Shown here piece after piece: positions 1 to 30,919 of a DNA stretch of 34,218 bases. This stretch comes from Bdellovibrionota bacterium (lineage in GTDB: Bacteria > Bdellovibrionota_C > UBA2361 > SZUA-149 > DAOLCO01). Below the pieces are notes generated by a model, which worked only from the letters and a program-made list of their open reading frames with translations, was not told the DNA's origin and ran no database searches. Location of the stretch: positions 1 through 34,218 of the forward strand of contig JBILFC010000001.1 of NCBI GenBank assembly GCA_044351785.1. Reading direction: 5' to 3'. The stretch's first letter is position 1, and each line of letters begins with the position of its first letter. The position numbers and the translations under genes were made by a program.

Positions 1-2
1 CT

Positions 3-1727
3 ATTCCTGGTCTAGTTAACTTCTCTAATGAAGAAATTGAATCTGCCTTAACATCTCTTTTAGGCCTAACTAAGAAAGAAGATCTTCCTTTAATAGATGC
101 TGATACTTTAAAAGGCCCTAATATCGATATAGAGACAGCTGTAGCTCTGTTAGACTCTGGCCTATCAGATTACATCTCATTAAATTTTATACATAAAGCT
201 AACGCAATTCCTAATGATCCATCCTACAGCTCTCTATGGGGGATGAATCAATCTAATGACATCGACATTAATGCACCAGAAGCTTGGGATAAAGTAAATC
301 CTGATGAAGTAAGAAACACAGTAGTGGCAGTTATAGACACCGGAATCAACTACAATCACCCTGATCTTAAAGATAACATGTGGATAAATACAGCAGAGCA
401 AGCCGGCAGCCCTGGAGTGGATGATGATGGAAATGGTGTTATTGATGATATTCACGGATATAATGCGATTAATAATACTGGCAATCCCCTTGACGATCAA
501 TCCCATGGTAGTCACTGTGCTGGAACAATAGGTGGTGTTGGAAACAACGGTCAAGGCGTAGCAGGTGTTGCATGGAATGTTAGACTCATGGCATTAAAAT
601 TCCTTGATTCAGCTGGTAGAGGAAGCGATTCTAATGCAATTAAAGCAATTAACTACGCTGTACAGAATAGAAACAAAAGTGGAACACTCAAAGTATTAAG
701 TAATTCTTGGGGTGGGTCTGGATACAATCCAGCTATGCTCTCAGCAATACAGTCTGCAAACAACGCAGGACTACTATTTGTAGCCGCAGCAGGAAATGAC
801 AACAAGAATACCGACTCAAGCGCTAACTATCCATCGAATTACGATGTTCCTAATGTAATATCGATTGCTGCTCTAAATCAAAATGGAAGTAGGGCTTCAT
901 TCTCCAATTATGGAGCCTCCACTGTAGATATAGGAGCACCTGGTGTAGGAATTTATAGTACGGTACTAGGTACTGGGTATGCCTCTTATAACGGAACATC
1001 CATGGCAACTCCTCATGTAGCTGGCATTGCTGCTCTTGTCTACTCTCAAAGTTCACTTACAACTCCAGGAGAGATGAGAACGCTATTAATGGAAAGCTTT
1101 AAACCTATTCCAGCCTTACAGAATTTAATGATTGTACCTGGAATTATTGATGCGAGCAAGGCTTTAACCGATAATACGAACTCTGCTCCTAATCTTCAAG
1201 ATATACCTAATCAAAAAATAAGAGATTTAACTAAGGTAATCACTGTACCCCTTGTAGCCTCTGATGCTGAGGATAACCAATTAACATTTAAAGCTGAAAT
1301 TCAAGGGCAAGCTCATGAAAAAATAGCCGCTGATATAGACAAACAATATGGCTTCACCGCATACCTTCCACAATTCGATAATTTCTATGGCTTAGCTGAA
1401 AAGAGATTAACCTCCCAATCTAATATGCAGTATTTTATATTTAACGATGGTAGTATTTACGAATTCACATTCCCCACTTATAGGTATAAAGCCAAAGTAG
1501 ATCCAAGGTATTATTCTAATCCTAATGGTTTAGTTAATGCACATCCACTCAGTTACAACAATCTGGCAATAATTACAGTAACAAATGGCAAACCTGGCAA
1601 ACTAGATATTAAACTAGCAGATAATTTTAGCGGTTCATTTTCAATTTTAGTTGAAGTAAGTGATGGAAACAAAACTGATTCCAGTACTTTTTTAGTAACA
1701 ACAACAGAGCCTGAAAGTTGCTCTTAG
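3..1727 (+). CDS. Subtilisin-like serine protease (peptidase S8), 5'-partial, with a C-terminal split cadherin-like repeat
   Basis: The frame of the 243 ATG stays open back to position 3 with no stop (IPGLVNFSNEE...FIHKANAIPNDPSYSSLWGM), so the gene starts upstream of the window. Catalytic triad motifs are present: VAVIDTGI (Asp codon 336-338), SHGSHCAGTIGG (His 514-516), GTSMATPHVAG (Ser 999-1001), plus oxyanion SNSWGG. The C-terminal ~170 aa (nt ~1195-1710) look like a cadherin-like repeat (VASDAEDNQLTF ... FSILVEVSDGN) interrupted by an insert. Confidence 0.9.
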   Translation: MPGLVNFSNEEIESALTSLLGLTKKEDLPLIDADTLKGPNIDIETAVALLDSGLSDYISLNFIHKANAIPNDPSYSSLWGMNQSNDIDINAPEAWDKVNPDEVRNTVVAVIDTGINYNHPDLKDNMWINTAEQAGSPGVDDDGNGVIDDIHGYNAINNTGNPLDDQSHGSHCAGTIGGVGNNGQGVAGVAWNVRLMALKFLDSAGRGSDSNAIKAINYAVQNRNKSGTLKVLSNSWGGSGYNPAMLSAIQSANNAGLLFVAAAGNDNKNTDSSANYPSNYDVPNVISIAALNQNGSRASFSNYGASTVDIGAPGVGIYSTVLGTGYASYNGTSMATPHVAGIAALVYSQSSLTTPGEMRTLLMESFKPIPALQNLMIVPGIIDASKALTDNTNSAPNLQDIPNQKIRDLTKVITVPLVASDAEDNQLTFKAEIQGQAHEKIAADIDKQYGFTAYLPQFDNFYGLAEKRLTSQSNMQYFIFNDGSIYEFTFPTYRYKAKVDPRYYSNPNGLVNAHPLSYNNLAIITVTNGKPGKLDIKLADNFSGSFSILVEVSDGNKTDSSTFLVTTTEPESCS

Positions 1728-1742
1728 TAAATTAGGTTTTAG

Positions 1743-4700
1743 ATGCCAAGTTGTATTAGGCTCATCAGTACTCGTTTAATTCTATTATTGTCTTTGATGA
1801 CAATAAATAGCTTTAATGCTGTTGCTGAGGATCAAGAAGTTACTCTATTTAGTCGCACCTTAAAAAATGGTGAACTAAGAGGTGAATCAGCTTTACTTGA
1901 AAAACCAGAAAAGACAGCCGGGATTCTATCAAATTTAATCACTAACACTAAAGTTATAAAAGATAATGGCCCATCATCTAATCGAGTAGATTTAGTATTT
2001 TTAGGCGATGGATATACAACCGGTGACTCTTCAAAGTTCGATTCTCAAGTGGTAAGCATCTCTGATGGTTTATTCCAACAAATGCCATTAAGTGAATATA
2101 AAAACTATTTCAATCTACATCAAGTTTTCTCACCATCAGTTCAATCTGGTATAGACAATGATGGACAACTTGGAATAGATAAAAATACGGTGTTGAATGG
2201 TAAATTTTATTGCCAAGACGTAAAGGAAAATATCTGCGTAGATGTATCTATCGCCTGGGAACTTGCTGCTCAAGCAAGAGACTTTGATCAAATTTCAGTT
2301 TTAGTAAACTCTAGCTCTGATGGGGGAACTGCCTATCCATTTAGCGATATCTCAGTGGTACCAGGAGGAAACGGTCTAGTAGCTAGTAATCTTGCTCACC
2401 AAGTGGGACATAGCTTTGCTAATCTTGCAGATGAATATGACAATGGTAGTTGGCCTACCTACACTGGCTTTGAACCAGCAGAACCAAATGTTTCTGCTCA
2501 AAATACTGAAGCCATGCTCACACAAAAACTTAAATGGCATCAATGGCTAAGCATAGATTCTGGCGCTAACTTTGGTGGAATAATAAATACCTATGAAGGT
2601 GCAATGGGTCATAAATATTCAATTTATAGGCCAACTGAAAACTCTAAGATGAGGAATCTAAATGCTCCATTCAATAACCCATCTATAGAATCTTTTATTA
2701 AAGAAATCTATAAAAAGGTAAAACCTATTGATAATGCAACGTCAGTGGAAACTCCTCTTACTGGTTCATCAGTGATAAGCGTAACCCCCCTTCAACCAAT
2801 CGGTAGAAACTTAACAATTCAGTGGTATGTAGATAACACTCCTATAGCAGGGGCTAATGCTAAAACTTTTAGACCAAATGACTACCCTATAAGTGATGGT
2901 ATGCATGCAATCTCAGTAGAGGTTTCAGATGATACTCCACTTCTAAAAGACGAAGCCTTTAGAACACAGTACATGAAGGAAAAACGCACTTGGAATGTAC
3001 CTATTGATCAAAATGCACCCATCATCACAAAACATCCTGCAAGTGTTTCTGTATTTATTGGAGCGACAACCAATCTATCGGTAACTGCCATTGGCGAAGA
3101 TCTAAAATACCAATGGTTTAAAAACGGCGTTAAAATTGACGGCGCTACTCAAACATCATATTTGACTCCAGGAGCAATAAGAGAAAAAGCTGACTACTAC
3201 GTAGAAGTCTCCAATGTTCAAGGTACCTTAAGAAGCAATACAGCTACTGTAAGTATTAAAAATAGACTACCCGCATATTCAGGTAGCACTTCATTAACTC
3301 TTTCTAGATTAGAAGAAAAAGAAATTGCTTTTGAAATTAACGATGAAGATGGTGACTCTCTATCTTCAGTTTATACAATTGAAGCCGCGACTAATACTGG
3401 CGTAACAGTTTCATTAGCTTCCAAGAGCCTTAAAATTAAAGCTAGCTCTGCTTACCTAGGACAATTTAGTATAAAATTAAATTTTACTGATTCTTATGAC
3501 ACAATTTCTATACCAATCTCGGTGAACGTTGTTAATAATGCTCCGGTCATTGATGCCATAAATGATTTAACTAGACTATGGACTACTGATAAAGCATCGG
3601 TTGAAATACTTGCTAGTGATAATGACAGCATGGACACAGTCAGTCTCTCTGCTAATCTTGCTACAGGATTCTCAGCACCTGTCAGCCTATCTATGAATGG
3701 TAAAGTGCTAAATATCGATCCGCAAGCAGGTTACTATGGTAAATTTAATGTAACGGTTAGGGCGACGGATGGATTTACAAACACATTTAGAACATTTTCC
3801 GTAAACTGGGCAAATGATAGCCCTGTAATAGATCAGGTGGCACCAATCCGCTCGCATTACAAAGTAGATAAAATTATAGTACCGATAAATGCGACCGATC
3901 CTAATGGTGACACATTACAACTTTCTGCTTCTATTTTGCCTATAAATAACCTAGTTACAGCTAGCTTAAGTGGCAAGACTCTTACCATAGATCCTTCCCC
4001 TACATATAGAGGAGCTAGTACTCTTCGTGTTACAGCTAGTGATAGTGCTCTTAGTAGTGTCATGAATACTAGTCTAGAAATTTATAATAATGCTCCAGTT
4101 ATTGCTCCGATTTCTGCAACAAATGTTAATCAGAATAAAAAATCAGTATCAATACCTGTATCAATATCAGACCCCGATCCAGAAGATAGCGCTACTTTAA
4201 CAAGCAGCGTTAGACTTCTTACTTCTGGAGCAAGTGGTGTTCAGGTTAAATTAGAAAATAACAACCTAATAGTCGAATCTAGTCAAAACTTTTCCGTACC
4301 TCTGTTAGTAGAAGTAAAAGCTACCGATGGAGATTTAACAGCAGTAAGAAATGTTTATCTTAGTGTACTTAATACAGCTCCCTTACTAACTAATATAGAT
4401 GAACAATTTATTCATCCTATTAAAGAAGACATAAGAACCATAGATTTAATAGCAACAGACATAGATAATGATAGTATTACGTATACCGCGGAAGTAGTAA
4501 AACCCAATGCCAAAGCCCCTACCCTATCTGTTTCAGGAAATAAATTATCCATCAATACTATCAACGACTTTCTTGGATCATTCACAATCAGAGTTATCGC
4601 TAGTGATGGCTTAAGTGAAGTAGCAAAAACATTCAAAGTCACAACTTATAATACAGATCCCGAGTTAAATGCCATTTGTGATCGTTCTGCACCGGCAACG

Positions 4701-7700
4701 AAGTTTCCAATAGAAATCCCGCTAATCGCATCAGATCCTGACAAAGAAGACTTAACTTTTGAAGGAAAAATTGAAAGAAATTCTTTACCATTTTTACTAA
4801 AGGCTAAATATAACTTTGACGCTATCAGATTTAGACCTAGTAATGGTCTAGGATTAGGTGAAAAGTATGTCAGTGGTTACGAAACAGACCCAGATATTAA
4901 ATTCTGGTACTATATTCTTCCTAATGGGGACCTATATAGGTTAAATAAAACACATAAGGAAAGCCAGTTCCTCCTAAAATTACCTGCAGGATACTATGAA
5001 AATCCCGATATCCTAATAAATGGTGATATCTCTGGAACTATTCTCAATGCTTTCTCAATATCTTTTGAGGGAAGTAAGCTTAAAGTTGCGCTCTCAAGAG
5101 CAGTACAAGGATCTGTTCAAATAAGGGTTAGAGCTAAAGATTACTTCTCATTTAATGAAAAATCTTTCATTCTAACTGTAACAGAAGGAAGATTAAAATT
5201 AGATGATGTTCCCGACATGAACATCCATTGGAAGGAAGAACCACGATCTGGATCATTAATAGCTAAAGATCCAGTAACTGGCTTAACACCAGATGATATG
5301 AGCTACGATGTGGCAGAATTTGACGGTTCTCTTGCAAAAAGTCTAGATGACCAATACAATTTTCATGTATCAAGAAATGATCAATATGATGCACAGATTC
5401 CACCTGATAACTTCACAAATAGAGGTGAGAAATATATTAGAGCTTACAAGATTAGTTATTTAAACAATGTACCTTCATACGCAGGGATTGATGTATTTGC
5501 GATACTTCCAAATGGTGATTTATATTTATCTCCACCAAAGGCTCAAAATACACAATACTACAGTTTAGAAAATGCTACATTAATAGCAGAACTTGATAAA
5601 GTCTATTATAGAGATACATCTTTACTAATCAATGCAGCAAGTGGAGCGGGAACAAATCTTATTATAAACGGAGATAATACTAGCTTCACGGTGGAACAAA
5701 CTCCTGGATTCTTAGGGAAAGTCATCTTAGAAGCAAGAGCATGGAAAGGTATCGCCTCAGACAGTAAAACATTTATTGTTAACATATACGACAATGAACC
5801 TACGCTGAATGTTCCACTTAATTGTGATGAATTTGGCTGCAAGTTAATAAGAAACTGGAAAACAAACGAAATTAGGCTTCCAATCACCCTCAGTGACGTT
5901 GACCCACTTGATAGTGTAACTTCTAAGGCCTTTGAAACGGATCCTTCCTTAAACCCAGCTAATTCAGCTTCTGAATATTCCCTAAAGTGGAATCATAAGA
6001 ATGGCCAATTCGATAGAGATGGCTGGAGAGAAATACATTTTGCAGGAACTTATCAAAACTCAGAAACTGATATCGCTTTAACTACTGATGGGAAATTATA
6101 TAAATGGAATGGTAATCCACAGAATAGCATTCTATTAACTCAAGTTCCTAGTTCATTCCATGAGCTAGGATACACCTTAGATTCTTCTGTCAATACTTCT
6201 AAGCCTAGCTTGTTAAATCATCCCGAAGTAAGAGTTGAAGGCTCTGAATTAGTAATTACCCCTAAAGCAAATACAGTTATAAATTCCGGTATAATAGGAT
6301 GGGCAAGCGACGGAATGAAACGCGGATTCCTCAAATTCCCCGTATTCATAATTAATCAGCAACCTCAAATTGGAGCCATTGCAGATAAAACTGTTCACTG
6401 GAGAGACAACCTCATTACCGAGAATATCTTGGTTAGTGATCCAGATGGAGACACCGTTTCAAACTTGAATCTGACAATCAATCCTATTAGCATTGATCCA
6501 GCTATCGATTATAATCTAACTAACCTAGTTCTTACTTTAAAATCTAAATTTGGATATTTAGGAACCTATTCATCCACAATCTTTGTGACTGATCAGGGTA
6601 ATCTAAGCAGTGCTCGATCATTTAATACTACAGTCTTCAATACTGCTCCAGTTCTAGAATCTATCGGCAATAAAGATATTGATTGGAATATGAATACGTT
6701 AGAAATTCCATTCACGATGAGCGATGCAGATGCTAATGACTCCGATAAGTTAATATCTATGGTATTTAACGGATCTGCTTCTGACTTTACCGATTTCCTA
6801 GTAAATAAGCACAAGTTTACTAAAACTGGAGCAGGTGCTACCAATTCTCTTGGACTATCTGAAGTACACTTCAAAGGTACAGTAGAGAATCAAAGTAGAG
6901 AATTTATAGTATTGCCCTCAGAGGCTATCTACCTTGTGAGTGGTACTAATTTAGAGATTAAAGGATTCCTAGCACCTGGTACATACAGTAACCCTAACAG
7001 ACTATTAAGCATTGTTAATCCGAACTTTGCTCCAAAACATTCTGTAAGCACCGACGGAACAAAAATCATTTTAAGTAAATCATCAGGGCTAACTGAACCA
7101 ATCATAGTTACAGCTTGGGCAACTGACACGATTCAAGCTACTTCTGAAACATTTACAGTAAATATCATAGACAACGCTCCAGTATTACCAGAGCTAGCGA
7201 CAAGCTATGAAAGACATTGGAGACCAGGGCTACTAGAACTTCCTAATTTCCCTTCAATTGACGAAGAAGGTGAAACCATTAATTATCAAGTAACTTCAAG
7301 TCCAGCAGGATTACAACACTCTATTAGCTCTAGTATTCTTTCTGTAAAACCAACTAATGCTAATCAAATTGGAAATTACACTGTAAACATAGTAGCAACT
7401 TCAGGATCTAAATCTTCAAGCAAGTCCTTTAGCTATAACTTAACAAATGGTGCTCCATCAATTGCACCTCTAGGAGCACAGACCGTCGTTGGTTACAAAG
7501 AATCTTACTCTCAACCCTTTACCGCAACAGATCCAAATTCAGATCCTCTAACTTATACTACCAGCCTAGTAGGACCTTCACCATCTAACTTCTTAGTTGC
7601 TGTAGCTGGATCTACGATTAAAGTTTCTCCTAAAACTCCGCTAGCAGGTACTTACACTATAAACCTAAAAGCTTCAGATGGGCCTTCTTCAGCAGATGCT

Positions 7701-10700
7701 TCAACACAAATAATTTTCCAAAATAGAGCGCCAACATTTAATGTTCCGTCAGCGATGGATATCCCATGGAAAACAAAAGTGGGTAGTCAAACTCTAGTTT
7801 TCAGTGATCCTGATGATGACACTCTAACCTTGACCCCTACCATCAGTGATCCTACTGTAGCCACTGCTGTGATAAGCGGAAATAAAATAAATATCGATCT
7901 AAAGAAATATGCTCCAAGTTTTATAGTTAAAATAAGATTAAGCGATGGAGCTAACTCTATAGACAGAGAATTCCCTGTTTCAGTTAGCAATCTTAAACCA
8001 ACTCTAACAGGCTTACCACCAACTAAAGACATACACTGGAATACAAATTCATTTACGCAATCATTCACAGTAGCAGATGCAAACAATGACACTTTAACAG
8101 TTACATCTAAAATACTAAATAACACAGTTCCTGCTAGCGTAACTATTACAAATAGCCTCGCTACTATAGATGTTACAGAAAAGAAAATGGGCGAATTAAA
8201 CTTAAATATAAAAGTTGCTGACGATGTCTCAAGCACTGAAGGCAACATGAAAGTTACCTTTACTAATACAAAACCTAAAATCTCAGAAATTGCTAACCAA
8301 ATTATTTCAACTGGCATAGAAAAGACTCTTGAACTAGAAGCCTCAGACGCCAATAGTGATGAATTAACACTTTCCGCTATAAAAATGTCTTTGGAAGAAG
8401 TTGCGTTTGACCTAGATAAAATGTTTAACTTTGAACAAGGCGAAACCAACTTTGGATTTAATAAATTAGGTAATAACGAAAAATACCTAAGAGGTAGCGA
8501 TCCTGTAAGAAAAACTCCTCTTAATTTTGTTATCTATCCTAATGGCAGACTATATATCTGGACTGGAATATTAACGAATAGCACTTTTTTAGGAAGTATT
8601 CCTACCGAATTGCATGCCAACCCTACTCTCCTTATCAACGCTATTGCTCCAAATGCTTCAAATATTTCTTATACCGCAAGCATAACTGGTTCTACATTGA
8701 AATTAAAAGCAATTAACGACTTTGAAGGAACCTTCTGGATTAGAGCGGCAGCCACAGATACTCAAGAATTAGCACCAATGTATTTTAGAGTTAATTCCTA
8801 TAAGGAAGTTACTTCAGGTGGTGGCACTGATCCAAAAGAGTGCGAAACTAAAGAGACAGAACACGACGGAGAATGCAGTCAATCTGGGAAGTCAATGTTC
8901 ACTGCCGAAGGCAGAATAGGAGATACTGTGACTGGGGCAGGAAATAGAACTTTTGAATTAGATATTGGCAAAAGTACTAGTGGGCCTTTTGCTAGTGGAC
9001 AAACAAGTAATCATATTTGGGTAAGTGGAAAGAAAGAAAGCTTCTCAATAACTTTTGATCCAATTAATAAAGTATGTAATTTTGTATTAGGAGGGAAAAC
9101 CGTAGTATATAAAATTACAGAAGATGTATTCTCTCTTAGTGACATTTTAATAAGAACTAGACGAGGGAATACTCAGTCCAGTATGAAAATTGATTCTCTA
9201 AAAATCAATGGTAAAACAATTTCTAATTCCGTGTACGCTGATGGGAATTCTAACCAAGTGCGAACTCTACAAATTCGTTCAGTGAAGGAACTAAAGGATA
9301 AATTCACCTTAGAGGGTGCTGCTACTATGATATTCTCCTCTGATGTGAAGAATTCAGAACTTGCATTCCAAATATCCTTTACGAAATCAGACAATGCGCC
9401 TGAGACTTGTGAAGATAGCGATGAAGATGATCATGATGACGACGATTCAGATCACGATGATGAAGACGATAATGATGACGATGATTCTAACTCCAGAAAA
9501 GTAAAAATATGTCATTATCCTCCAGGAAATACCTCTAACCCACAGACAATTACTGTTTCTAAGTCTTCATTATCAGCTCACTTAGCACACGGCGATGTGA
9601 TTGGAGAATGTCCAGGCGATCCTCAAGATCCAGGCACGGGTGAAATTTCATGCGAAGCTAAGCAGTTGTTTGCTAGCCCTAACTACACTCTTTGGAATAG
9701 CTTCTTAAATATGATCAATATTCTAGAATTGACTAACTCTACAGCTAACCCAATTCCAGTGAAGATCTCCTTCTTCTCAATATTAGGTGAGCTTGCACAT
9801 GAAAGAACAATAGTTGTCCCAGCGACTAACCAGTTCGACGTTATTATCAATGATTTCCCTGGATTCGTGAAAGATTCCTATGGTGTTGTAAAACTCGAGT
9901 TTACTGGAAATCTTGATGGTAGAATGAGTTTCTATAGACCTACAACTGGTCTTACTTCTTATGACTATGCATATTCAATTCCTTTAGCTGATGCGAATTT
10001 TGGAACAACTGCAATAAGTTTCAATACCTTCCAACCAAGTCAAAAGCCTTCTGAGCTTAATAACTTAGTAGCTAACTGGTTAAGTATAGTAAATCTTGAT
10101 TCAGCGACACAAAAATATAGTGTCTTCACTTATGATATGTCTGGAAAACTTATTCTTAGAAGAGAGCTTGAAATTCCTTCATTCGGAAGAGCCGATGTCG
10201 ATGGTGGCCATGGTCTTGCAGGCCCTAATGTAGTCGGTTACCATAAGGTTATCCCCTACAATGTGACAGCGGAATACATCGCTCAAATAACTAGATTCGG
10301 TGGGAATGCTGCTGCTGGATTTGCCCCTTCAGCATATAAATTTGCCTTCCCATTATCCGCTAAGCTTGGTGCAAGCGATCCTATTTATGTTCCAATTTCG
10401 AATAAATTCGGGGAATCAAATTGGATAGAAGTTGTAAATATTCTTGATCAAACAGTACAAGCTGCAATCAACTACTACTCAATTGATGGTAGGTTACTTG
10501 AATCTGCAGATGCTTACATCCCAGGGAATGCTCAAATACATTTTAATGCTAGTGCTCAATTAGCAAGTGGAGAGACTGGTTATGCCGTAGTCGTTCCAAG
10601 CACTCCATATTCAATTGTTGCTCAAAGTATGGGTTACCTTAGAGAGCAAGCAACTGGCAGCGTAACTTCAGTTTATGGATCTCAAGCTAGAAGAGCTGTA

Positions 10701-11027
10701 CCTTGTGTTCAATCTGGCGCTTACAACTTATATCTAAATATGCAAAACTGGTTACTAGTTGCAAATACTACTAATGACACTATAAAAGCCGTGGTAAAAT
10801 TCACTGGACCTAATCTAGCTAGCCAGAAGTCCCTAACCCTCGCTCCTAGGGCATCTGTTTACCTACCAATTCATGGCAATACGGAAATTGGTGCTAAAGC
10901 AGATACTTATGGACTCATCGCGGTATATCCCGAGGATTCTTCTCTAAGATTATTCTCCGAAGTTATGAGACTTAAGTATAAGGCTGATGGTTCACCTGAC
11001 TTCTCAATGCCAGTCCCAGTTAGATAA
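1743..11027 (+). CDS. Giant (3,094 aa) secreted mosaic surface protein with an M64-like domain carrying HQVGH, Ig-like domain, 15 cadherin-like repeats and a composite C-terminal region
   Basis: Single uninterrupted ORF starting 15 nt after the S8 stop. N-terminal signal peptide (LILLLSLMTINSFNAVA/ED). M64 signature RVDLVFLGDGYT ... LVNSSSDGG ... AHQVGHSFANLADEYD. Ig-like segment KYQWFKNGVKIDGATQTSY...YYVEVSNVQG (~3015-3260). Repeats carry [ST]D[PA][DN]xDxL motifs (3261-8803). C-terminal modules occupy 8804-11024. Confidence 0.9.
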   Translation: MPSCIRLISTRLILLLSLMTINSFNAVAEDQEVTLFSRTLKNGELRGESALLEKPEKTAGILSNLITNTKVIKDNGPSSNRVDLVFLGDGYTTGDSSKFDSQVVSISDGLFQQMPLSEYKNYFNLHQVFSPSVQSGIDNDGQLGIDKNTVLNGKFYCQDVKENICVDVSIAWELAAQARDFDQISVLVNSSSDGGTAYPFSDISVVPGGNGLVASNLAHQVGHSFANLADEYDNGSWPTYTGFEPAEPNVSAQNTEAMLTQKLKWHQWLSIDSGANFGGIINTYEGAMGHKYSIYRPTENSKMRNLNAPFNNPSIESFIKEIYKKVKPIDNATSVETPLTGSSVISVTPLQPIGRNLTIQWYVDNTPIAGANAKTFRPNDYPISDGMHAISVEVSDDTPLLKDEAFRTQYMKEKRTWNVPIDQNAPIITKHPASVSVFIGATTNLSVTAIGEDLKYQWFKNGVKIDGATQTSYLTPGAIREKADYYVEVSNVQGTLRSNTATVSIKNRLPAYSGSTSLTLSRLEEKEIAFEINDEDGDSLSSVYTIEAATNTGVTVSLASKSLKIKASSAYLGQFSIKLNFTDSYDTISIPISVNVVNNAPVIDAINDLTRLWTTDKASVEILASDNDSMDTVSLSANLATGFSAPVSLSMNGKVLNIDPQAGYYGKFNVTVRATDGFTNTFRTFSVNWANDSPVIDQVAPIRSHYKVDKIIVPINATDPNGDTLQLSASILPINNLVTASLSGKTLTIDPSPTYRGASTLRVTASDSALSSVMNTSLEIYNNAPVIAPISATNVNQNKKSVSIPVSISDPDPEDSATLTSSVRLLTSGASGVQVKLENNNLIVESSQNFSVPLLVEVKATDGDLTAVRNVYLSVLNTAPLLTNIDEQFIHPIKEDIRTIDLIATDIDNDSITYTAEVVKPNAKAPTLSVSGNKLSINTINDFLGSFTIRVIASDGLSEVAKTFKVTTYNTDPELNAICDRSAPATKFPIEIPLIASDPDKEDLTFEGKIERNSLPFLLKAKYNFDAIRFRPSNGLGLGEKYVSGYETDPDIKFWYYILPNGDLYRLNKTHKESQFLLKLPAGYYENPDILINGDISGTILNAFSISFEGSKLKVALSRAVQGSVQIRVRAKDYFSFNEKSFILTVTEGRLKLDDVPDMNIHWKEEPRSGSLIAKDPVTGLTPDDMSYDVAEFDGSLAKSLDDQYNFHVSRNDQYDAQIPPDNFTNRGEKYIRAYKISYLNNVPSYAGIDVFAILPNGDLYLSPPKAQNTQYYSLENATLIAELDKVYYRDTSLLINAASGAGTNLIINGDNTSFTVEQTPGFLGKVILEARAWKGIASDSKTFIVNIYDNEPTLNVPLNCDEFGCKLIRNWKTNEIRLPITLSDVDPLDSVTSKAFETDPSLNPANSASEYSLKWNHKNGQFDRDGWREIHFAGTYQNSETDIALTTDGKLYKWNGNPQNSILLTQVPSSFHELGYTLDSSVNTSKPSLLNHPEVRVEGSELVITPKANTVINSGIIGWASDGMKRGFLKFPVFIINQQPQIGAIADKTVHWRDNLITENILVSDPDGDTVSNLNLTINPISIDPAIDYNLTNLVLTLKSKFGYLGTYSSTIFVTDQGNLSSARSFNTTVFNTAPVLESIGNKDIDWNMNTLEIPFTMSDADANDSDKLISMVFNGSASDFTDFLVNKHKFTKTGAGATNSLGLSEVHFKGTVENQSREFIVLPSEAIYLVSGTNLEIKGFLAPGTYSNPNRLLSIVNPNFAPKHSVSTDGTKIILSKSSGLTEPIIVTAWATDTIQATSETFTVNIIDNAPVLPELATSYERHWRPGLLELPNFPSIDEEGETINYQVTSSPAGLQHSISSSILSVKPTNANQIGNYTVNIVATSGSKSSSKSFSYNLTNGAPSIAPLGAQTVVGYKESYSQPFTATDPNSDPLTYTTSLVGPSPSNFLVAVAGSTIKVSPKTPLAGTYTINLKASDGPSSADASTQIIFQNRAPTFNVPSAMDIPWKTKVGSQTLVFSDPDDDTLTLTPTISDPTVATAVISGNKINIDLKKYAPSFIVKIRLSDGANSIDREFPVSVSNLKPTLTGLPPTKDIHWNTNSFTQSFTVADANNDTLTVTSKILNNTVPASVTITNSLATIDVTEKKMGELNLNIKVADDVSSTEGNMKVTFTNTKPKISEIANQIISTGIEKTLELEASDANSDELTLSAIKMSLEEVAFDLDKMFNFEQGETNFGFNKLGNNEKYLRGSDPVRKTPLNFVIYPNGRLYIWTGILTNSTFLGSIPTELHANPTLLINAIAPNASNISYTASITGSTLKLKAINDFEGTFWIRAAATDTQELAPMYFRVNSYKEVTSGGGTDPKECETKETEHDGECSQSGKSMFTAEGRIGDTVTGAGNRTFELDIGKSTSGPFASGQTSNHIWVSGKKESFSITFDPINKVCNFVLGGKTVVYKITEDVFSLSDILIRTRRGNTQSSMKIDSLKINGKTISNSVYADGNSNQVRTLQIRSVKELKDKFTLEGAATMIFSSDVKNSELAFQISFTKSDNAPETCEDSDEDDHDDDDSDHDDEDDNDDDDSNSRKVKICHYPPGNTSNPQTITVSKSSLSAHLAHGDVIGECPGDPQDPGTGEISCEAKQLFASPNYTLWNSFLNMINILELTNSTANPIPVKISFFSILGELAHERTIVVPATNQFDVIINDFPGFVKDSYGVVKLEFTGNLDGRMSFYRPTTGLTSYDYAYSIPLADANFGTTAISFNTFQPSQKPSELNNLVANWLSIVNLDSATQKYSVFTYDMSGKLILRRELEIPSFGRADVDGGHGLAGPNVVGYHKVIPYNVTAEYIAQITRFGGNAAAGFAPSAYKFAFPLSAKLGASDPIYVPISNKFGESNWIEVVNILDQTVQAAINYYSIDGRLLESADAYIPGNAQIHFNASAQLASGETGYAVVVPSTPYSIVAQSMGYLREQATGSVTSVYGSQARRAVPCVQSGAYNLYLNMQNWLLVANTTNDTIKAVVKFTGPNLASQKSLTLAPRASVYLPIHGNTEIGAKADTYGLIAVYPEDSSLRLFSEVMRLKYKADGSPDFSMPVPVR
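3261..8803 (+). repeat. Array of 15 diverged ~90-aa cadherin-like/Ig-like repeats inside the giant CDS; five carry a roughly 75-100 aa insert
   Basis: Recurrent unit boundaries N[NTD]APV[IL]. Acidic motifs SDNDSMD, TDPNGDTL, SDPDPEDS, TDIDNDSI, SDPDKEDL, SDPDGDTV, SDADANDS, TDPNSDPL, SDPDDDTL, ADANNDTL, SDANSDEL. Each unit closes with ...G.F.i.v.a.Dg. The repeats are conserved at protein level only, with no long identical DNA blocks seen. Confidence 0.8.
9411..9485 (+). repeat. GAT/GAC/GAA-rich low-complexity tract encoding EDSDEDDHDDDDSDHDDEDDNDDDD
   Basis: Read codon by codon from 9411: 25 consecutive codons, of which 21 encode D or E, interspersed with H, S and N. Confidence 0.9.
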
Positions 11028-25809: not shown

Positions 25810-26763
25810 CTAGAATCCGCTATACCCAGAACACTCTCCTTGATAACTCACATTAATACCGGCCTCTGTAGCTTTACACTCATTAAAATAGGTCTGTGCA
25901 TTTGCGCCACATACCGGTGCATATACTCGAGAGCATGTCGGAGCCCCACATTCACCCTCGTATAATACTGTAGTTCCAGCTGCTCTAGCATAGCAAGTGT
26001 TACCATAAGTTTCACCATCTGCACCACAGACAGGCACAAATTCCTGCGAACAGATAGGAGCAGGGGCAGACTCCTGTCTGCAAATCCCTTGATGAGCGAC
26101 TCCCACCCCCGCTTCGGCAGCATGACAATAACTATCATATGTTTTGCCATCGACACCGCAAACCTTTCCAATAACTTGTATACAGTAAGGCCCATCAGTT
26201 GACTCCTGCTTGCACTCACCTTCATAAGAGACAGTAGCGCCAGCATTTTTAGCTTCACAAGAATTACTATAGGTCTTACCATCTGTCCCACAAACAGGCT
26301 TAATCCACTGTGGGCATATATCAGATCCTCCCGTGCTAGGAGAATCTGGCCTTTTACTATTATCAATATTATTATCCACACTCGTACGTACATCTTCAGG
26401 CGTTTTTCCTACTACCACATCTATCTGAGCTGGTTTTGAATTATCAACTAAATTTGTTACAGATACAGTTGTGTTTACAGCAGGACCATTAAATATAATT
26501 ACTGCCTCTTGACCTACCTCACTAGCAATCTCAAATTTGCCCTCAGAATCTGTAATAGTAGTATCGCCAGTTTCTTCGACCGTAACGGAAACATTAGGTA
26601 TCGGCTTTTGATTAGAATCTACGACAGTCCCTTCAAATTGTCTTAAATTTACAGACGTATTATCTCCACCCGTCCCAGAAGTACCACCTCCACATGCCAT
26701 GATTGACACAATTAAAAACCCTAAAAATACTTTGGAACAAACCTTACCAACAAAACAATTCAT
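25810..26763 (-). CDS. Lipoprotein with a CarboxypepD_reg-like beta-sandwich and four tandem atypical Kazal-like protease-inhibitor domains
   Basis: Lipobox SIMAC (Cys24). FEGTVVDSNQKPIPNVSVTVEETGDTTITDSEGKFEI matches the carboxypeptidase-regulatory-like pattern. There are four copies of C-x7-C-G-x-D/N-G/A-x-T-Y-x3-C-x-A-x2-A-G-x9-C. Confidence 0.85.
   Translation of the reverse strand: MNCFVGKVCSKVFLGFLIVSIMACGGGTSGTGGDNTSVNLRQFEGTVVDSNQKPIPNVSVTVEETGDTTITDSEGKFEIASEVGQEAVIIFNGPAVNTTVSVTNLVDNSKPAQIDVVVGKTPEDVRTSVDNNIDNSKRPDSPSTGGSDICPQWIKPVCGTDGKTYSNSCEAKNAGATVSYEGECKQESTDGPYCIQVIGKVCGVDGKTYDSYCHAAEAGVGVAHQGICRQESAPAPICSQEFVPVCGADGETYGNTCYARAAGTTVLYEGECGAPTCSRVYAPVCGANAQTYFNECKATEAGINVSYQGECSGYSGF
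25831..26316 (-). repeat. Four Kazal-like units (aa 150-184, 194-228, 238-272, 276-311)
   Basis: CPQWIKPVCGTDGKTYSNSCEAKNAGATVSYEGEC; CIQVIGKVCGVDGKTYDSYCHAAEAGVGVAHQGIC; CSQEFVPVCGADGETYGNTCYARAAGTTVLYEGEC; CSRVYAPVCGANAQTYFNECKATEAGINVSYQGEC. Period is 44/44/38 aa. Confidence 0.85.
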
Positions 26764-27782: not shown

Positions 27783-28259
27783 ATGGCTGGCGCACTTCCA
27801 AAATCACCCTCAGAATTTACTAAAATCCCAGGCGCGAAAGTAGCCATTATTGCTAGCATGTGGCACAAGGAAATTATTGAAACCATGGTCCAGAGTGCAA
27901 AGAAGCACCTCATGGCAATTGGCCTTCAAGAAAAGCATATTAAAATCACTTGGGCTCCTGGTTCTCATGAAATTCCTTACTATGCTAAAATGCTTTTAGA
28001 TCATCAAAATAATTTAGATGGAATCATGGCCTTTGGCGTTGTACTCAGAGGCGGCACAACTCACAATGACTCCGTACTTCAAGCCGCTGTTAATGGTTTT
28101 ATCAATCTAAGCCTAGAATACGGAAAACCAATTATCAATGAAGTGATTGGAGTAAATAATATTGAAGACGCTGAAAAAAGAGCAGAAGACAAAGGCACCG
28201 AGGCGACCTTTGCCTTCTCAGAAGCAATTGCGTTTAAGAGATCCTTACTTCTTCTTTAA
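27783..28259 (+). CDS. ribH: 6,7-dimethyl-8-ribityllumazine synthase (divergent)
   Basis: VAIIASMWHKEIIETM (canonical ASRFN... with Trp in the stacking position), APGSHEIP (canonical VPGAFEIP), DGIMAFGVVLRGGTTHNDSV, EDAEKRAEDKGTEA. Confidence 0.78.
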   Translation: MAGALPKSPSEFTKIPGAKVAIIASMWHKEIIETMVQSAKKHLMAIGLQEKHIKITWAPGSHEIPYYAKMLLDHQNNLDGIMAFGVVLRGGTTHNDSVLQAAVNGFINLSLEYGKPIINEVIGVNNIEDAEKRAEDKGTEATFAFSEAIAFKRSLLLL

Positions 28260-30323
28260 CAATTCCGCCGTTTCTAGAAGCTTTATATAGTCAGCTCTAT
28301 ACCCAAGAGCGTCTTCACCCTTAGCACCCCTAGCTAACTCTATCGCAGTAGCAAAGGTAGCTGAACCTTTATATTCAGAATCTCTAAGAAGCATACCGAA
28401 CTCAGCAACAGAAGCTGCGAATCTAAAGTTATTACTTGTTTCACTACCAGCAATTGGATTAGAGTTAATCACCTGACTTATCAGTTTACTTTGTTCTTCA
28501 GCAGGAAGTTTATATCTAAGCTTTATAGTAGCCAACTCTTCATTGTGATTCATCTCCTGAACTTTTACAGGACTAGGCGAAGGAGCTGCCCGCTGATACT
28601 TAAGATCATCAACACTTGCCACCTGATTAAAATCAACTCCTACTGGAACAATTTCATAAAGCGCAGTTACGCTATGACCTGAACCTAATTCCCCAGCGTC
28701 TTTTTTATCATCATTAAAATCTTCCTTCGCTAACATTCTATTTTCATAACCGATCAACCTATATGCCTGCACATATGCTGGGTTAAATTCTATCTGAATT
28801 TTAACATCCTTAGCGATAGTAAATAGAGTCCCTTTAAGATCTTGAACTAAGACCTTCTTAGCTTCAAGAATATTATCTATAAAGTAGTAACTGCCATTCC
28901 CTTTATTAGCTAACTGCTCCATCTTTTTATCCTGATAGTCACCAGTACCGAAGCCAAGTACACTTAAAAACACCCCTGACTTTCTTTTCTCTTCTATCAA
29001 CCTCACTAATTCTTGATCACTAGATACTCCGACATTAAAATCACCGTCAGTAGCCAATATAACTCTATTATTAGCGCCCTGAATGAAATTCTTCTTCGCA
29101 ATTTCATAAGCTAAGCCTATCCCAGCTGCTCCAGCAGTGGATCCTCCTGGAGAAAAGCTATCAATGGCTGAAAGGATTTCTGCCTTCTGAGTTCCACTTT
29201 TTGACTCGAACACCACTCCAGCAGTACCAGCATAAGTCACAACTGAAAGCCTATCTTCTGGTTTTAACTTCTCGACTAATAACTTTAGTCCCTGCTTTAA
29301 CAAAGGTAACTTATCAGGACTATCCATAGACCCTGATACGTCTACTAGGAATACAAGATTACTAGCTGGAAGCTCACTAATATCCTCTTCGTATCCCTTA
29401 AGTCCAACATGAAGTAATTGATGTTTAGGCTCCCAAGGCGCTGAACCTAATTCAGTATAAACAGCAAATGGAACTTCTTTAGTTGATGGAGCTTTATAAT
29501 CATACTTAAAGTAATTTAGAAGCTCCTCTGTTCTAACAACATCCGCAGGCGGTAACTCACTGTTACTTAAGTACCGTCTTACATTAGAATACGAGCCAGT
29601 ATCCACATCTATTGAAAATGTAGAAAGAGGTACGTTTAAGGCATCTAAATAGCCATTTTCAACAGCTTTGCCGTAATCAGTATCTAGCGCAGCAAAATTC
29701 GCCTCTCGACTACCATCTAATACCATCTGACCCTTAAGACCTCTTCCTATATTTGCCCCCTGAGCAGGAACTGATTTGGGTAATACTGACTTTTTCTGAC
29801 CTTCAATGTCATTCTTAAAAGCCACTATAAGATCCGCGTATTGCTCACCGCCCTCGGATTGTAACGCATACGGAACAGGATTTGGAGTACCCTCAGTAGG
29901 TGCATTCACACCCGTTAGAAGATTTACTGATTCACCTTCATTAGTTAAAACCTGCACCCCAGGTTGAGCTTTGTAAATAATCATTAAGACTGCAATACTT
30001 GCAAAACTTGGCGCAAGCACATACACAAACCTTCTTCTATCTACAACCTTCGCTATTTTTTTCCTTATACTACTCATACTACTACTCCATTTATTAACCG
30101 GCGATAATTCTCCAATCGCCTTCATTACTACTAAATCAAAACCTTCTGGTGCCTTAACTCCATTTACGCTCATGGAACCTAAAGCAGCATTTACCTTAAC
30201 AAATTCATTATAATCACTAGCTAACTTAGGATCTTCTCTGAAACTTTTCTCTAAAGATTCCCTCTCAGAAGCCGACAATGTGCCTTCTAAATATGCTAAA
30301 AATTGTTCGTGTAAGTCTTTCAT
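28245..30323 (-). CDS. Anti-sigma-factor N-terminal domain / TM / von Willebrand factor A fusion (YfbK-like, 692 aa)
   Basis: N-terminus HEQFLAYLEGTLSASERESLE (anti-sigma-like, no Cys), TM helix FVYVLAPSFASIAVLMIIY, PLSTFSIDVDTGSYSNVRRYL...RTEELLNYF (VWA N-terminal module), MIDAS DVSGSM (29325-29342), and a long C-terminal extension. Confidence 0.85.
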   Translation of the reverse strand: MKDLHEQFLAYLEGTLSASERESLEKSFREDPKLASDYNEFVKVNAALGSMSVNGVKAPEGFDLVVMKAIGELSPVNKWSSSMSSIRKKIAKVVDRRRFVYVLAPSFASIAVLMIIYKAQPGVQVLTNEGESVNLLTGVNAPTEGTPNPVPYALQSEGGEQYADLIVAFKNDIEGQKKSVLPKSVPAQGANIGRGLKGQMVLDGSREANFAALDTDYGKAVENGYLDALNVPLSTFSIDVDTGSYSNVRRYLSNSELPPADVVRTEELLNYFKYDYKAPSTKEVPFAVYTELGSAPWEPKHQLLHVGLKGYEEDISELPASNLVFLVDVSGSMDSPDKLPLLKQGLKLLVEKLKPEDRLSVVTYAGTAGVVFESKSGTQKAEILSAIDSFSPGGSTAGAAGIGLAYEIAKKNFIQGANNRVILATDGDFNVGVSSDQELVRLIEEKRKSGVFLSVLGFGTGDYQDKKMEQLANKGNGSYYFIDNILEAKKVLVQDLKGTLFTIAKDVKIQIEFNPAYVQAYRLIGYENRMLAKEDFNDDKKDAGELGSGHSVTALYEIVPVGVDFNQVASVDDLKYQRAAPSPSPVKVQEMNHNEELATIKLRYKLPAEEQSKLISQVINSNPIAGSETSNNFRFAASVAEFGMLLRDSEYKGSATFATAIELARGAKGEDALGYRADYIKLLETAELLKKK

Positions 30324-30919
30324 TAGCGAACCTCACTTAATTTAGATCTTAGAACTAAAAGGGCGGCATTCATTCTTGAAGAAACTGTTCCAACAGGAAT
30401 ATCAAGTTCTTTACTAATTTCTTGATACGACATCCCGTTAAAAGCCCGCCGAACTAAAACATCTTTATAAATTTCTTTTAGCTGTGAAATTTCTTGCCGC
30501 ATAAAACCTAAAAGTTCCTCAGAAAACTTGTTCTCTTCGCTAGTTTCTGAACTAATTATCTGCTCATGCTCACTTGTCTTAAAACTATCTGATCGCTGTT
30601 TTTTCTTATACGCAGAAGAAGTGAAATAAGACTTAATATTATTTAGAGCTATTCTAACTAACCAAGTCTTAAACAAACTATCTCCCTTAAAAGTTCCCAG
30701 ATATTTATAAGCCCTGATAAAAGTATCCTGTGCAATATCTTTCGCCATAGCTTGATCACCTACCTGAGCTAACACCAATGCATAGATCTGATCTTGGAAA
30801 TTTAAAACAATAGAAGAGAATGCGGACTTATCGCCAGCGATAACTCGCCGAACAACATCCAGAATCTGGCCCTCATCAAGAGGCAACTTAACTACATTCT
30901 CACTCATCTTCCTATCCAA
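30323..30919 (-). CDS. ECF-type RNA polymerase sigma-70 family factor
   Basis: Region 2 DIAQDTFIRAYKYL...FKTWLVRIALNNIKSY. Region 4 MSYQEISKELDIPVGTVSSRMNAALLVLRSKL. TAATG overlap with the anti-sigma gene. The track start is a TTG at 30919; the ATG at 30907 (MSENVV...) is an equally plausible start. Confidence 0.9.
   Translation of the reverse strand: MDRKMSENVVKLPLDEGQILDVVRRVIAGDKSAFSSIVLNFQDQIYALVLAQVGDQAMAKDIAQDTFIRAYKYLGTFKGDSLFKTWLVRIALNNIKSYFTSSAYKKKQRSDSFKTSEHEQIISSETSEENKFSEELLGFMRQEISQLKEIYKDVLVRRAFNGMSYQEISKELDIPVGTVSSRMNAALLVLRSKLSEVR

Follow-up and report, generated by a model that had tools for sequence, protein, structure and literature searches.

A secreted giant protein from a Bdellovibrionota bacterium with a probably non-catalytic M64 peptidase-like head

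Introduction

Can a peptidase domain be of use to a bacterium once its catalytic glutamate is gone? This question is raised by a 34,218-nt stretch of DNA from a Bdellovibrionota bacterium (contig JBILFC010000001.1, positions 1 to 34,218 of the forward strand; hereafter the window), which encodes a 3094-amino-acid (aa) protein with a predicted secretion signal. The N-terminal part of this protein, hereafter the head, resembles zinc peptidases of the M64 family, in which the active-site helix carries an HExxH motif, and reads HQVGH instead. An earlier note on this DNA had pointed to this change and proposed a pseudo-protease kept as a binding module, with a sequencing error or a recent mutation as the alternative. 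The analysis reported here makes it probable that the head is a former active M64 peptidase which lost its catalysis long ago and which selection has maintained in a non-catalytic role.

Pseudo-metalloproteases are well known in animals, the inactive ADAMs being an example, and to our knowledge they have rarely been documented in bacteria. A literature search on M64 pseudo-enzymes retrieved only unrelated papers on type VI secretion systems. In a 2025 survey of the M64 family, all bacterial clusters keep the HEXXHXXXGXXD motif (PMC12402451).

Assignment of the head to the M64 family

The features on which the argument is built are the following:

1743..11027, + strand: giant open reading frame (ORF) of 3094 aa (ORF and domain searches)
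1950..2747, + strand: M64/igalysin-fold domain, aa 70-335, predicted to be catalytically disabled (Pfam, PDB, AlphaFold2, Foldseek, alignment)
2397..2438, + strand: zinc-site motif H219-Q220-V-G-H223-S-F-A-N-L-A-D230-E231-Y232 (alignment; residue roles from PMC12237041 and PMC12402451)
2643..2654, + strand: Met-turn S301-K-M303-R304, found in 9/9 members of the clade described below (alignment; defined in PMC12237041)

The strings by which the domain had been recognised as M64-like are all present in the translation, namely RVDLVFLGDGYT (aa 81-92), LVNSSSDGG (aa 187-195) and HQVGHSFANLADEYD, and the homology that they suggested is borne out by profile, sequence and structure comparisons. Residues 72-270 match PF09471 at E=7.7e-36, the score of 124.2 bits lying well above the gathering cut-off (26), and PDB sequence matches of the head include BF3526 (4df9/9qdi), 3p1v and the Thomasclavelia ramosa IgA protease (IgAse). 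The AlphaFold2 (AF2) model of aa 30-425, which has a predicted local distance difference test score (pLDDT) of 93.9 and a predicted template-modelling score (pTM) of 0.88, places HQVGH within a helix (model residues 184-197); a Foldseek search with this model retrieves BF3526 (E 3.5e-21), 3p1v (3e-19) and IgAse (3.5e-15), followed by adamalysins. The prediction that the head is a genuine M64/igalysin domain is thus solid.

Two further differences are shared with Glu-bearing relatives. The Gly of HExxHxxxGxxD is Asn in the window (N227), and Asn is frequent at this position in Glu-bearing relatives too. As to the second, structural zinc site of the family, made of a Glu and three Cys, E231 is present and the first Cys (C398 in BF3526) is S301. 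The C398 position, next to the Met-turn, is likewise occupied by Ser in 94% of the near relatives that bear the Glu, so this second site is not family-wide.

The residue at the catalytic-glutamate position

The codons at 2397-2411 are indeed CAC CAA GTG GGA CAT (aa 219-223), and the CAA at 2400-2402, encoding Q220, stands where the catalytic Glu is expected, in a column that is E in 203/203 aligned domains outside the clade. CAA is one nucleotide away from GAA, which would fit a sequencing error, or a very recent GAA to CAA mutation, in an otherwise active M64 peptidase. The relatives of the domain allow this explanation to be weighed.

In a first search, 73 relatives were found, 72 of them with HExxH; the closest one, P0001 (51% identity), has HQIGH. 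P0001 is a free-standing version of the domain, 336 aa long, with its own signal peptide and stop codon, and its DNA (locus L001, 32% GC) has CAA at the site with different neighbouring synonymous sites. A genome scan revealed an orthologous gene of ~3110 aa in an uncultured Bdellovibrionales metagenome-assembled genome (MAG), whose product is 70% identical over the head and whose motif codons are CAT CAA ATT GGC CAT. When 1.84 billion representatives were searched exhaustively, 4892 relatives were obtained at E<=1e-3, the best 150 of which were listed. The top eight score 727-314 bits, after which scores drop to 247 bits, and all eight (the window's own protein, P0001 and P0075-P0080) are devoid of the Glu, which is present in the next 138 relatives among these best 150.

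The motif of the nine Glu-less sequences reads HQVGH in the window, HQIGH in the MAG orthologue and P0001, HQLGH in P0075, HLLGH in P0076, HQFGH in P0077 and P0078, HQFAH in P0079 and HVFGH in P0080; the site is thus Q in seven members, L in one and V in one. No GAA was found at this codon in the clade: the MAG orthologue has CAA, and the seven further members encode Q (CAA/CAG), L (CTT) or V (GTG). Over all nine, the codons are CAA in three, CAG in four, CTT and GTG, with synonymous neighbours that differ. The use of both CAA and CAG indicates that Gln persisted through synonymous turnover.

In a neighbour-joining tree of 212 M64 domains (computed in numpy with the motif column masked and 200 bootstrap replicates), the nine Glu-less domains form one bipartition, recovered in 199/200 replicates, and identity within this clade is 49-76%. 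Elsewhere, Glu is found in all 203 aligned domains, in 317/326 proteins and in 80/80 metagenome loci (about 400 relatives in all). The latter loci come from a metagenome scan with clade peptide patterns (HSF[AG]NLAD and YTGFEP[AG]E), which yielded only Glu-bearing sequences at <=46% identity and no new clade member, and a profile search of a 5.8-billion-protein set likewise added no clade member and only the singleton P0243.

P0243 is a 393-aa protein from a 2169-bp metagenome contig, has HNLGH at the site and is 68% identical to the Glu-bearing P0083. It is placed among the Glu-bearing relatives and keeps every other active-site residue (R, Y, G, Y), so that an isolated mutation looks unlike the clade pattern; P0243 is probably a sporadic mutation, a pseudogene or an assembly error.

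Eight other independently assembled sequences without Glu at this column, from samples of 32-61% GC, the two Gln codons, the bootstrap value of the clade and the concerted loss of four further active-site residues (see below) thus all speak against an error or a recent event in the window. This alternative, left open by the earlier note, is rejected and retains virtually no probability. As judged from the compared sequences, the replacement of the catalytic Glu is genuine and ancient.

Concerted loss of active-site residues

The active site of M64 enzymes is known from recent structures. In IgAse, the M64 type enzyme, the motif is H539-E540-xx-H543-xxx-G547-xx-D550, with Y552 as the tyrosine switch and M608 in the Met-turn; the E540A change abolishes activity, Glu-to-Gln or Glu-to-Ala being standard inactive forms (PMC12237041). 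In BF3526, zinc is bound by H311, H315 and D322, with E312 as the base and Y324 in a hydrogen bond to the scissile carbonyl, and R255, Y256, Y286 and G290 contact the substrate (PMC12402451). The positions of the latter four are found in the window as follows:

2226..2231, + strand: E162-N163, at the positions of BF3526 R255/Y256 (substrate-contacting latch, loop 3; alignment)
2319..2333, + strand: D193...A197, at the positions of BF3526 Y286 and G290 (substrate-binding strand; alignment)

In the alignment of the 212 domains with BF3526, the Glu-bearing sequences (203) are >=85% conserved at 59 columns, which were examined for losses. Six of the 59 are lost in the clade, and five of these six correspond to E312, R255, Y256, Y286 and G290 of BF3526. 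The window has Q220, E162, N163, D193 and A197 there, i.e., none of the substrate contacts is kept. Active-site positions are enriched among the lost columns (Fisher p=1.4e-4, or 7e-6 with metal ligands excluded). In Glu-bearing relatives, the positions of R255 and Y256 are R in 93% and L in 85%, respectively, and those of Y286 and G290 are Y in 94% and G in 93%; all are lost clade-wide.

The metal site has a different fate. Both zinc-binding His residues are retained, as had been noticed, and H219, H223, D230, E231 and M303 are invariant in 9/9 clade members, so that the whole His/His/Asp set of zinc ligands (H219, H223, D230) is present along with the Met-turn. The Tyr of the switch, Y232, is found in 8/9 members and is T in P0080. 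Given a background column invariance of 27%, the joint probability of five invariant residues is about 1.5e-3.

With such a site, the domain might still be a hydrolase, perhaps of a new substrate, with a relocated base (e.g., E162 or E231) or with a zinc-hydroxide mechanism in which the helix Glu is dispensable. In favour of this, the three zinc ligands, Y232 and the Met-turn are retained, the domain is strongly constrained, and the R255-equivalent position in loop 3 is Glu in 5/9 members, including the window (E162). The same position is, however, G, N, T or S in the other four; Leu and Val are tolerated at the base position; the contacts equivalent to Y286, G290, R255 and Y256 are all gone; no new acidic or His residue has appeared clade-wide; and the E540A form of IgAse is dead. 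A residual hydrolase is thus quite improbable. The sequence predicts the absence of peptidase activity, for which "non-peptidase homologue of M64" would be a suitable filing of the domain.

Constraint on the domain and its Trp/Phe-rich loop

Constraint was compared by contrasts of identity and of nonsynonymous divergence (pN), synonymous sites being saturated (pS about 0.8). Between the window and the MAG orthologue, the M64 domain is 77% identical with a pN of 0.13, against 58% and 0.28 for the repeat stalk that occupies the middle of the protein. The stalk is the least conserved part, the M64 domain is among the best conserved ones and the C-terminal module is the most conserved.

Within the domain, the clade was set against control sets of nine active relatives each, matched to its diversity. 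Overall invariance is 0.267 in the clade versus 0.272 in the matched Glu-bearing sets, with regional differences in both directions: aa 120-190, the region of the lost substrate contacts, is less invariant in the clade (0.15-0.25 versus 0.32-0.47), and a loop at aa 233-253 is more invariant (0.57 versus 0.25).

2439..2501, + strand: loop that follows the zinc ligand D230, aa 233-253, DNGSWPTYTGFEPAEPNVSAQ; within the clade, no other segment of the domain is as constrained (alignment)

The clade-specific residues of this loop are a W237-P238 insertion, F243, A246 and A252. The insertion aligns at the position of the BF3526 latch residue D329, which pairs with R255 (PMC12402451). Over the whole domain, clade-wide gains are W172, F200, L217, W237, P238, F243, A246, A252, Q261, M288, G289 (which replaces a family-conserved Tyr) and S317. 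No new Asp, Glu or His is found among them, which argues against a relocated catalytic base. These comparisons show that constraint has shifted to a clade-specific aromatic loop beside the putative metal site.

The location of this loop also bears on the possibility that the head is purely structural, acting as a folding nucleus, a cap or an export/retention plug without any ligand, with the zinc site kept for stability. The retained elements (zinc ligands, Met-turn) are stability elements, the same beta and Ig domains always come next, and there is no known ligand. However, the strongest constraint is found not in the core but in a surface loop with clade-specific Trp/Phe residues beside the former cleft; P0001 is free-standing, so the domain occurs without the fibre; and the same C-terminal module carries functional heads elsewhere (see below). 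A purely structural head therefore seems unlikely.

Taken together, the data strongly support, at the level of sequence comparison, a loss of catalysis with retention of the domain under selection, and the domain has probably been reused for binding.

Architecture of the giant protein

The remainder of the protein comprises the following parts:

1743..1826, + strand: predicted Sec signal peptide (MPSCIRLISTRLILLLSLMTINSFNAVA, followed by EDQ), read from the sequence by eye
2748..3272, + strand: post-M64 beta domain (aa 336-425) and immunoglobulin (Ig)-like domain (aa 426-510), kept clade-wide
3273..8852, + strand: repeat stalk, aa 511-2370, with Big_9, cadherin-like and tandem-95 repeats
about 4908, 5502 and 8526, + strand: stalk insert modules, around aa 1056, 1254 and 2262
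8862..9380, + strand: choice-of-anchor W domain, aa 2374-2546 (NCBIfam NF041928, E=4.7e-34, 117.7 bits against a cut-off of 45)
9381..9689, + strand: poly-acidic linker (DDHDDDDSDHDDEDDNDDDD) and Cys motif (KICHYPPGN...AHLAHGDVIGEC)
9690..11027, + strand: 445-aa all-beta C-terminal module (ORF, relatives, AF2 model)

From the N- to the C-terminus, the protein thus consists of a signal peptide, the M64-like head, a beta domain, an Ig domain and the repeat stalk, followed by the choice-of-anchor W domain, the acidic linker with its Cys motif and the C-terminal module. The ATG at 1743 is favoured over that at 1797 because the resulting N-terminal MPSxIRL is kept at the N-terminus of the MAG orthologue, and because the signal-peptide-like sequence is then complete. 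The public gene call P0074 (3076 aa) begins at Met19, i.e., at window position 1797.

The stalk matches Big_9 (five stretches, E=5e-20), Cadherin_5, Ig_7 and the tandem-95 repeat. Its cadherin-like repeats are broken up by insert modules of ~100 aa with the signature "ILPNGDLY...YYxNP..LIN". Further downstream, aa 2595-2649 (9525..9689, + strand) contain the poly-acidic run DDHDDDDSDHDDEDDNDDDD and then the Cys motif, KICHYPPGN..TI.V....L.AHLAHGDVIGEC. The giant proteins of the clade share the whole layout, including a Cys motif of the form CHxPPGN...AHLAHGD..GEC, which is matched in the MAG orthologue, P0076, P0077 and P0080 and not in P0079. A long secreted protein with an N-terminal signal-peptide-like sequence and a tandem Ig-like stalk is what is expected of a fibrillar adhesin. 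As for anchoring, the choice-of-anchor W domain is present, and no LPXTG, PEP-CTERM, type IX secretion system (T9SS) or beta-barrel anchor signal was found in the protein.

The C-terminal module is 51-83% identical across clade members. A Pfam scan and a PDB sequence search of this module gave no match, and its relatives show only weak similarity to DUF5719. The AF2 model is all-beta, with a moderate pLDDT of 69.5; in a Foldseek search it is best matched by strings of macroglobulin-like domains, with TM scores of 0.12-0.15, which is uninformative. A profile search was more telling: the module also ends secreted proteins of ~700 aa with protease heads, either of the reprolysin type (6/6 with HExxHxxGxxH) or of the trypsin type (13/13 with TAAHC and GDSGG), and one of these proteins comes from a Bdellovibrionales MAG. 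Intact heads on the same module indicate that the head-plus-module design is modular, the dead M64 head being an exception. The C-terminal module thus looks like an uncharacterised protease-associated module.

The S8 subtilase gene and the possible role of the head

The giant gene is preceded by a protease gene, both in the window and in several related loci:

1..1727, + strand: S8 subtilase, 5' end cut by the window edge (Pfam PF00082, E=2e-58)
L002 8104-9984, L003 4284-6086 and L007 8026-9978: S8 genes upstream of the giant gene in other loci, with intact triads

In the window, the S8 gene stops 15 nt before the start of the giant ORF, and its reading frame stays open as far as the first nucleotide. 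All three residues of the Asp/His/Ser triad are in place, as seen from the DTG, HGSHCAGT and GTSMATPH motifs in an alignment with three orthologues. In the window, L002, L003 and L007, the two genes are separated by <=22 nt or, in L003, overlap by 4 bp. In addition, the C-terminal ~180 aa of the subtilase are homologous to modules of the stalk (BLAST E=5.6e-11 with aa 970-1148 and 2.3e-10 with aa 2174-2367), and the "ILPNGDLY" insert module of the stalk also occurs in the subtilase C-terminus. An adjacent S8 gene was not found in L004, L006 and L008, and in L005 the only candidate, an S8-cadherin protein, is encoded at a distance and in the opposite orientation. When locus contexts were compared, S8 pairing as a clade-wide feature was rejected; it is confined to one sub-branch.

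This arrangement suggests that the dead head could be a partner, dock or regulator of the subtilase, i.e., a pseudoenzyme scaffold that holds the protease or presents substrates to it. The intact S8 gene directly upstream in four loci and the stalk-type module common to the S8 C-terminus and the giant protein are consistent with such a role. Nonetheless, the shared module lies in the stalk and not in the M64 head, and the S8 gene is not adjacent in L004, L005, L006 and L008, which makes a dedicated S8 dock very improbable. Residual hydrolase, structural cap and subtilase dock are thus all ranked below a former peptidase kept as a non-catalytic module.

What has become of the domain, and what might it do? 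In all members of the monophyletic clade, the catalytic base has given way to Q, L or V, and the four other substrate-handling positions have gone together with it; the three zinc ligands and the Glu next to them have stayed, as have the Met-turn and, in 8/9 members, the Tyr. The domain may thus still bind zinc, and its remodelled cleft may act as a ligand-binding head on a long Ig/cadherin-like stalk, a "fibrillar enzyme" having turned into an adhesin-like protein. In the sub-branch of the window, this head would work beside a co-transcribed, intact S8 subtilase with a common stalk module. Zinc binding, binding in the cleft and a distal position of the head are suggested by the pattern of conservation, the free-standing P0001 and precedents such as the inactive ADAMs and the "fibrillar enzymes". 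As for the pseudo-protease kept as a binding module that was first proposed, its pseudo-protease half is strengthened by the loss of four more substrate-handling residues next to invariant zinc ligands, and its binding half is best worded as a suggestion.

Several points weigh against this interpretation. Zinc binding, inactivity and ligand binding are all read from sequence, and the clade is small (nine sequences, all from MAGs and metagenome contigs). The loop-3 Glu (E162) could in principle reach the metal site. As the ancestral substrate-binding residues are gone, binding would require a remodelled site and a new ligand. The S8 pairing is seen in only 4/8 loci with context, and the fold search with the C-terminal module does not tell which end of the protein is anchored.

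A more specific scheme can be drawn up, in which the head is a new zinc-dependent recognition module, a natural "substrate trap" rebuilt around its Trp/Phe loop and borne by predatory Bdellovibrionales-like bacteria on the end of a ~3000-residue fibre. It would take part in a "bind-and-cut" surface system with the subtilase: the dead protease would target prey or a substrate, which S8 would cleave. Put in such detail, the scheme is speculative and unlikely.

Other genes of the window

Two further loci are of interest for the gene content of the window:

25810..26763, - strand: 317-aa protein with a CarboxypepD_reg-like domain and four Kazal-type inhibitor domains (PF00050, E=3e-27)
28245..30919, - strand: VWA/YfbK-type protein of 692 aa, whose gene overlaps by one base the upstream gene of an extracytoplasmic function (ECF)-type sigma factor of 198 aa

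Kazal domains are mainly eukaryotic and are thus unusual in a bacterium; in a genome with so many secreted serine proteases, this protein may be of relevance. The VWA/YfbK-type gene with an ECF sigma factor is an ordinary gene pairing.

Significance

Dead zincins were already known. What is new here is a bacterial M64 clade that keeps the metal site in a rebuilt cleft, within proteins of ~3000 aa. The clade can be viewed as a natural experiment, in which the base and the substrate-gripping residues were dropped together, the metal site stayed and selection came to act on a new aromatic loop. A practical consequence concerns annotation: an M64 match that combines H[QLV]xxH with the W-P insertion should not be labelled a peptidase. 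The analysis also draws attention to an uncharacterised C-terminal module that is common to three unrelated protease families in Bdellovibrionales-like bacteria, and it yields a candidate surface recognition head, amenable to testing, from bacteria in which little is known of the proteins that contact the prey.

Comparison with known systems

The closest characterised relatives are the M64 peptidases BF3526 of B. fragilis and BACOVA_00663 of B. ovatus (PDB 4DF9, 9QDI and 3P1V), which give the best structural match, at about 24% identity; BF3526 is also the best sequence match among solved structures. The window's domain has in common with BF3526 the igalysin fold, the H..H...D zinc ligands, the Tyr after Asp-Glu and the xxMR Met-turn. 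In contrast to BF3526, E312 is replaced by Q, and R255, Y256, Y286 and G290 by E, N, D and A, respectively; the second zinc site is without its three Cys, and a W-P insertion is found at the loop-4 latch. Furthermore, BF3526 is a 426-aa lipoprotein, whereas the domain studied here is the N-terminus of a 3094-aa protein.

The IgA protease of Thomasclavelia ramosa (IgAse or ThomasA; PDB 9I4Z, 9QDH, 9EKK and 9QA6), the type M64 peptidase, provides a likeness in architecture, as its M64 domain is also part of a large multi-domain protein with beta-sandwich domains, in this case a surface protein. Its engineered, inactive E540A form is the laboratory counterpart of the natural change in the clade. 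Unlike the clade proteins, IgAse keeps the Glu, is active, carries an LPXTG-like anchor and comes from a Gram-positive bacterium; it shares only about 15% identity with the window's domain when the folds are aligned.

Substitutions of the same kind are found in the active-site helix of the inactive ADAMs, M12B metzincins that have HQxxH or LQxxL for HExxH. These proteins have been retained as non-proteolytic adhesion or recognition proteins, and the Glu of HExxH is most often replaced by Gln (PMC3650047). As ADAMs belong to M12B, are eukaryotic and carry disintegrin domains, the analogy is one of outcome, with homology at the clan level only.

With regard to overall shape, the protein resembles fibrillar adhesins and "fibrillar enzymes", in being long and secreted, with an Ig/cadherin-like repeat stalk and a terminal functional domain. 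Enzyme domains borne by such stalks may also serve binding (Monzon et al., PMC9210967). It differs from fibrillar adhesins in three respects: a recognised anchor motif was not found, the enzyme at its end is disabled and the 445-aa C-terminal module is uncharacterised.

Lastly, the trypanosomatid M64-like cluster CL-X is the sole PF09471 group reported without catalytic residues (PMC12402451). CL-X, a eukaryotic cluster of 11 members, is reported to be devoid of the conserved catalytic residues altogether, whereas the present clade is bacterial and has selectively kept its metal ligands.

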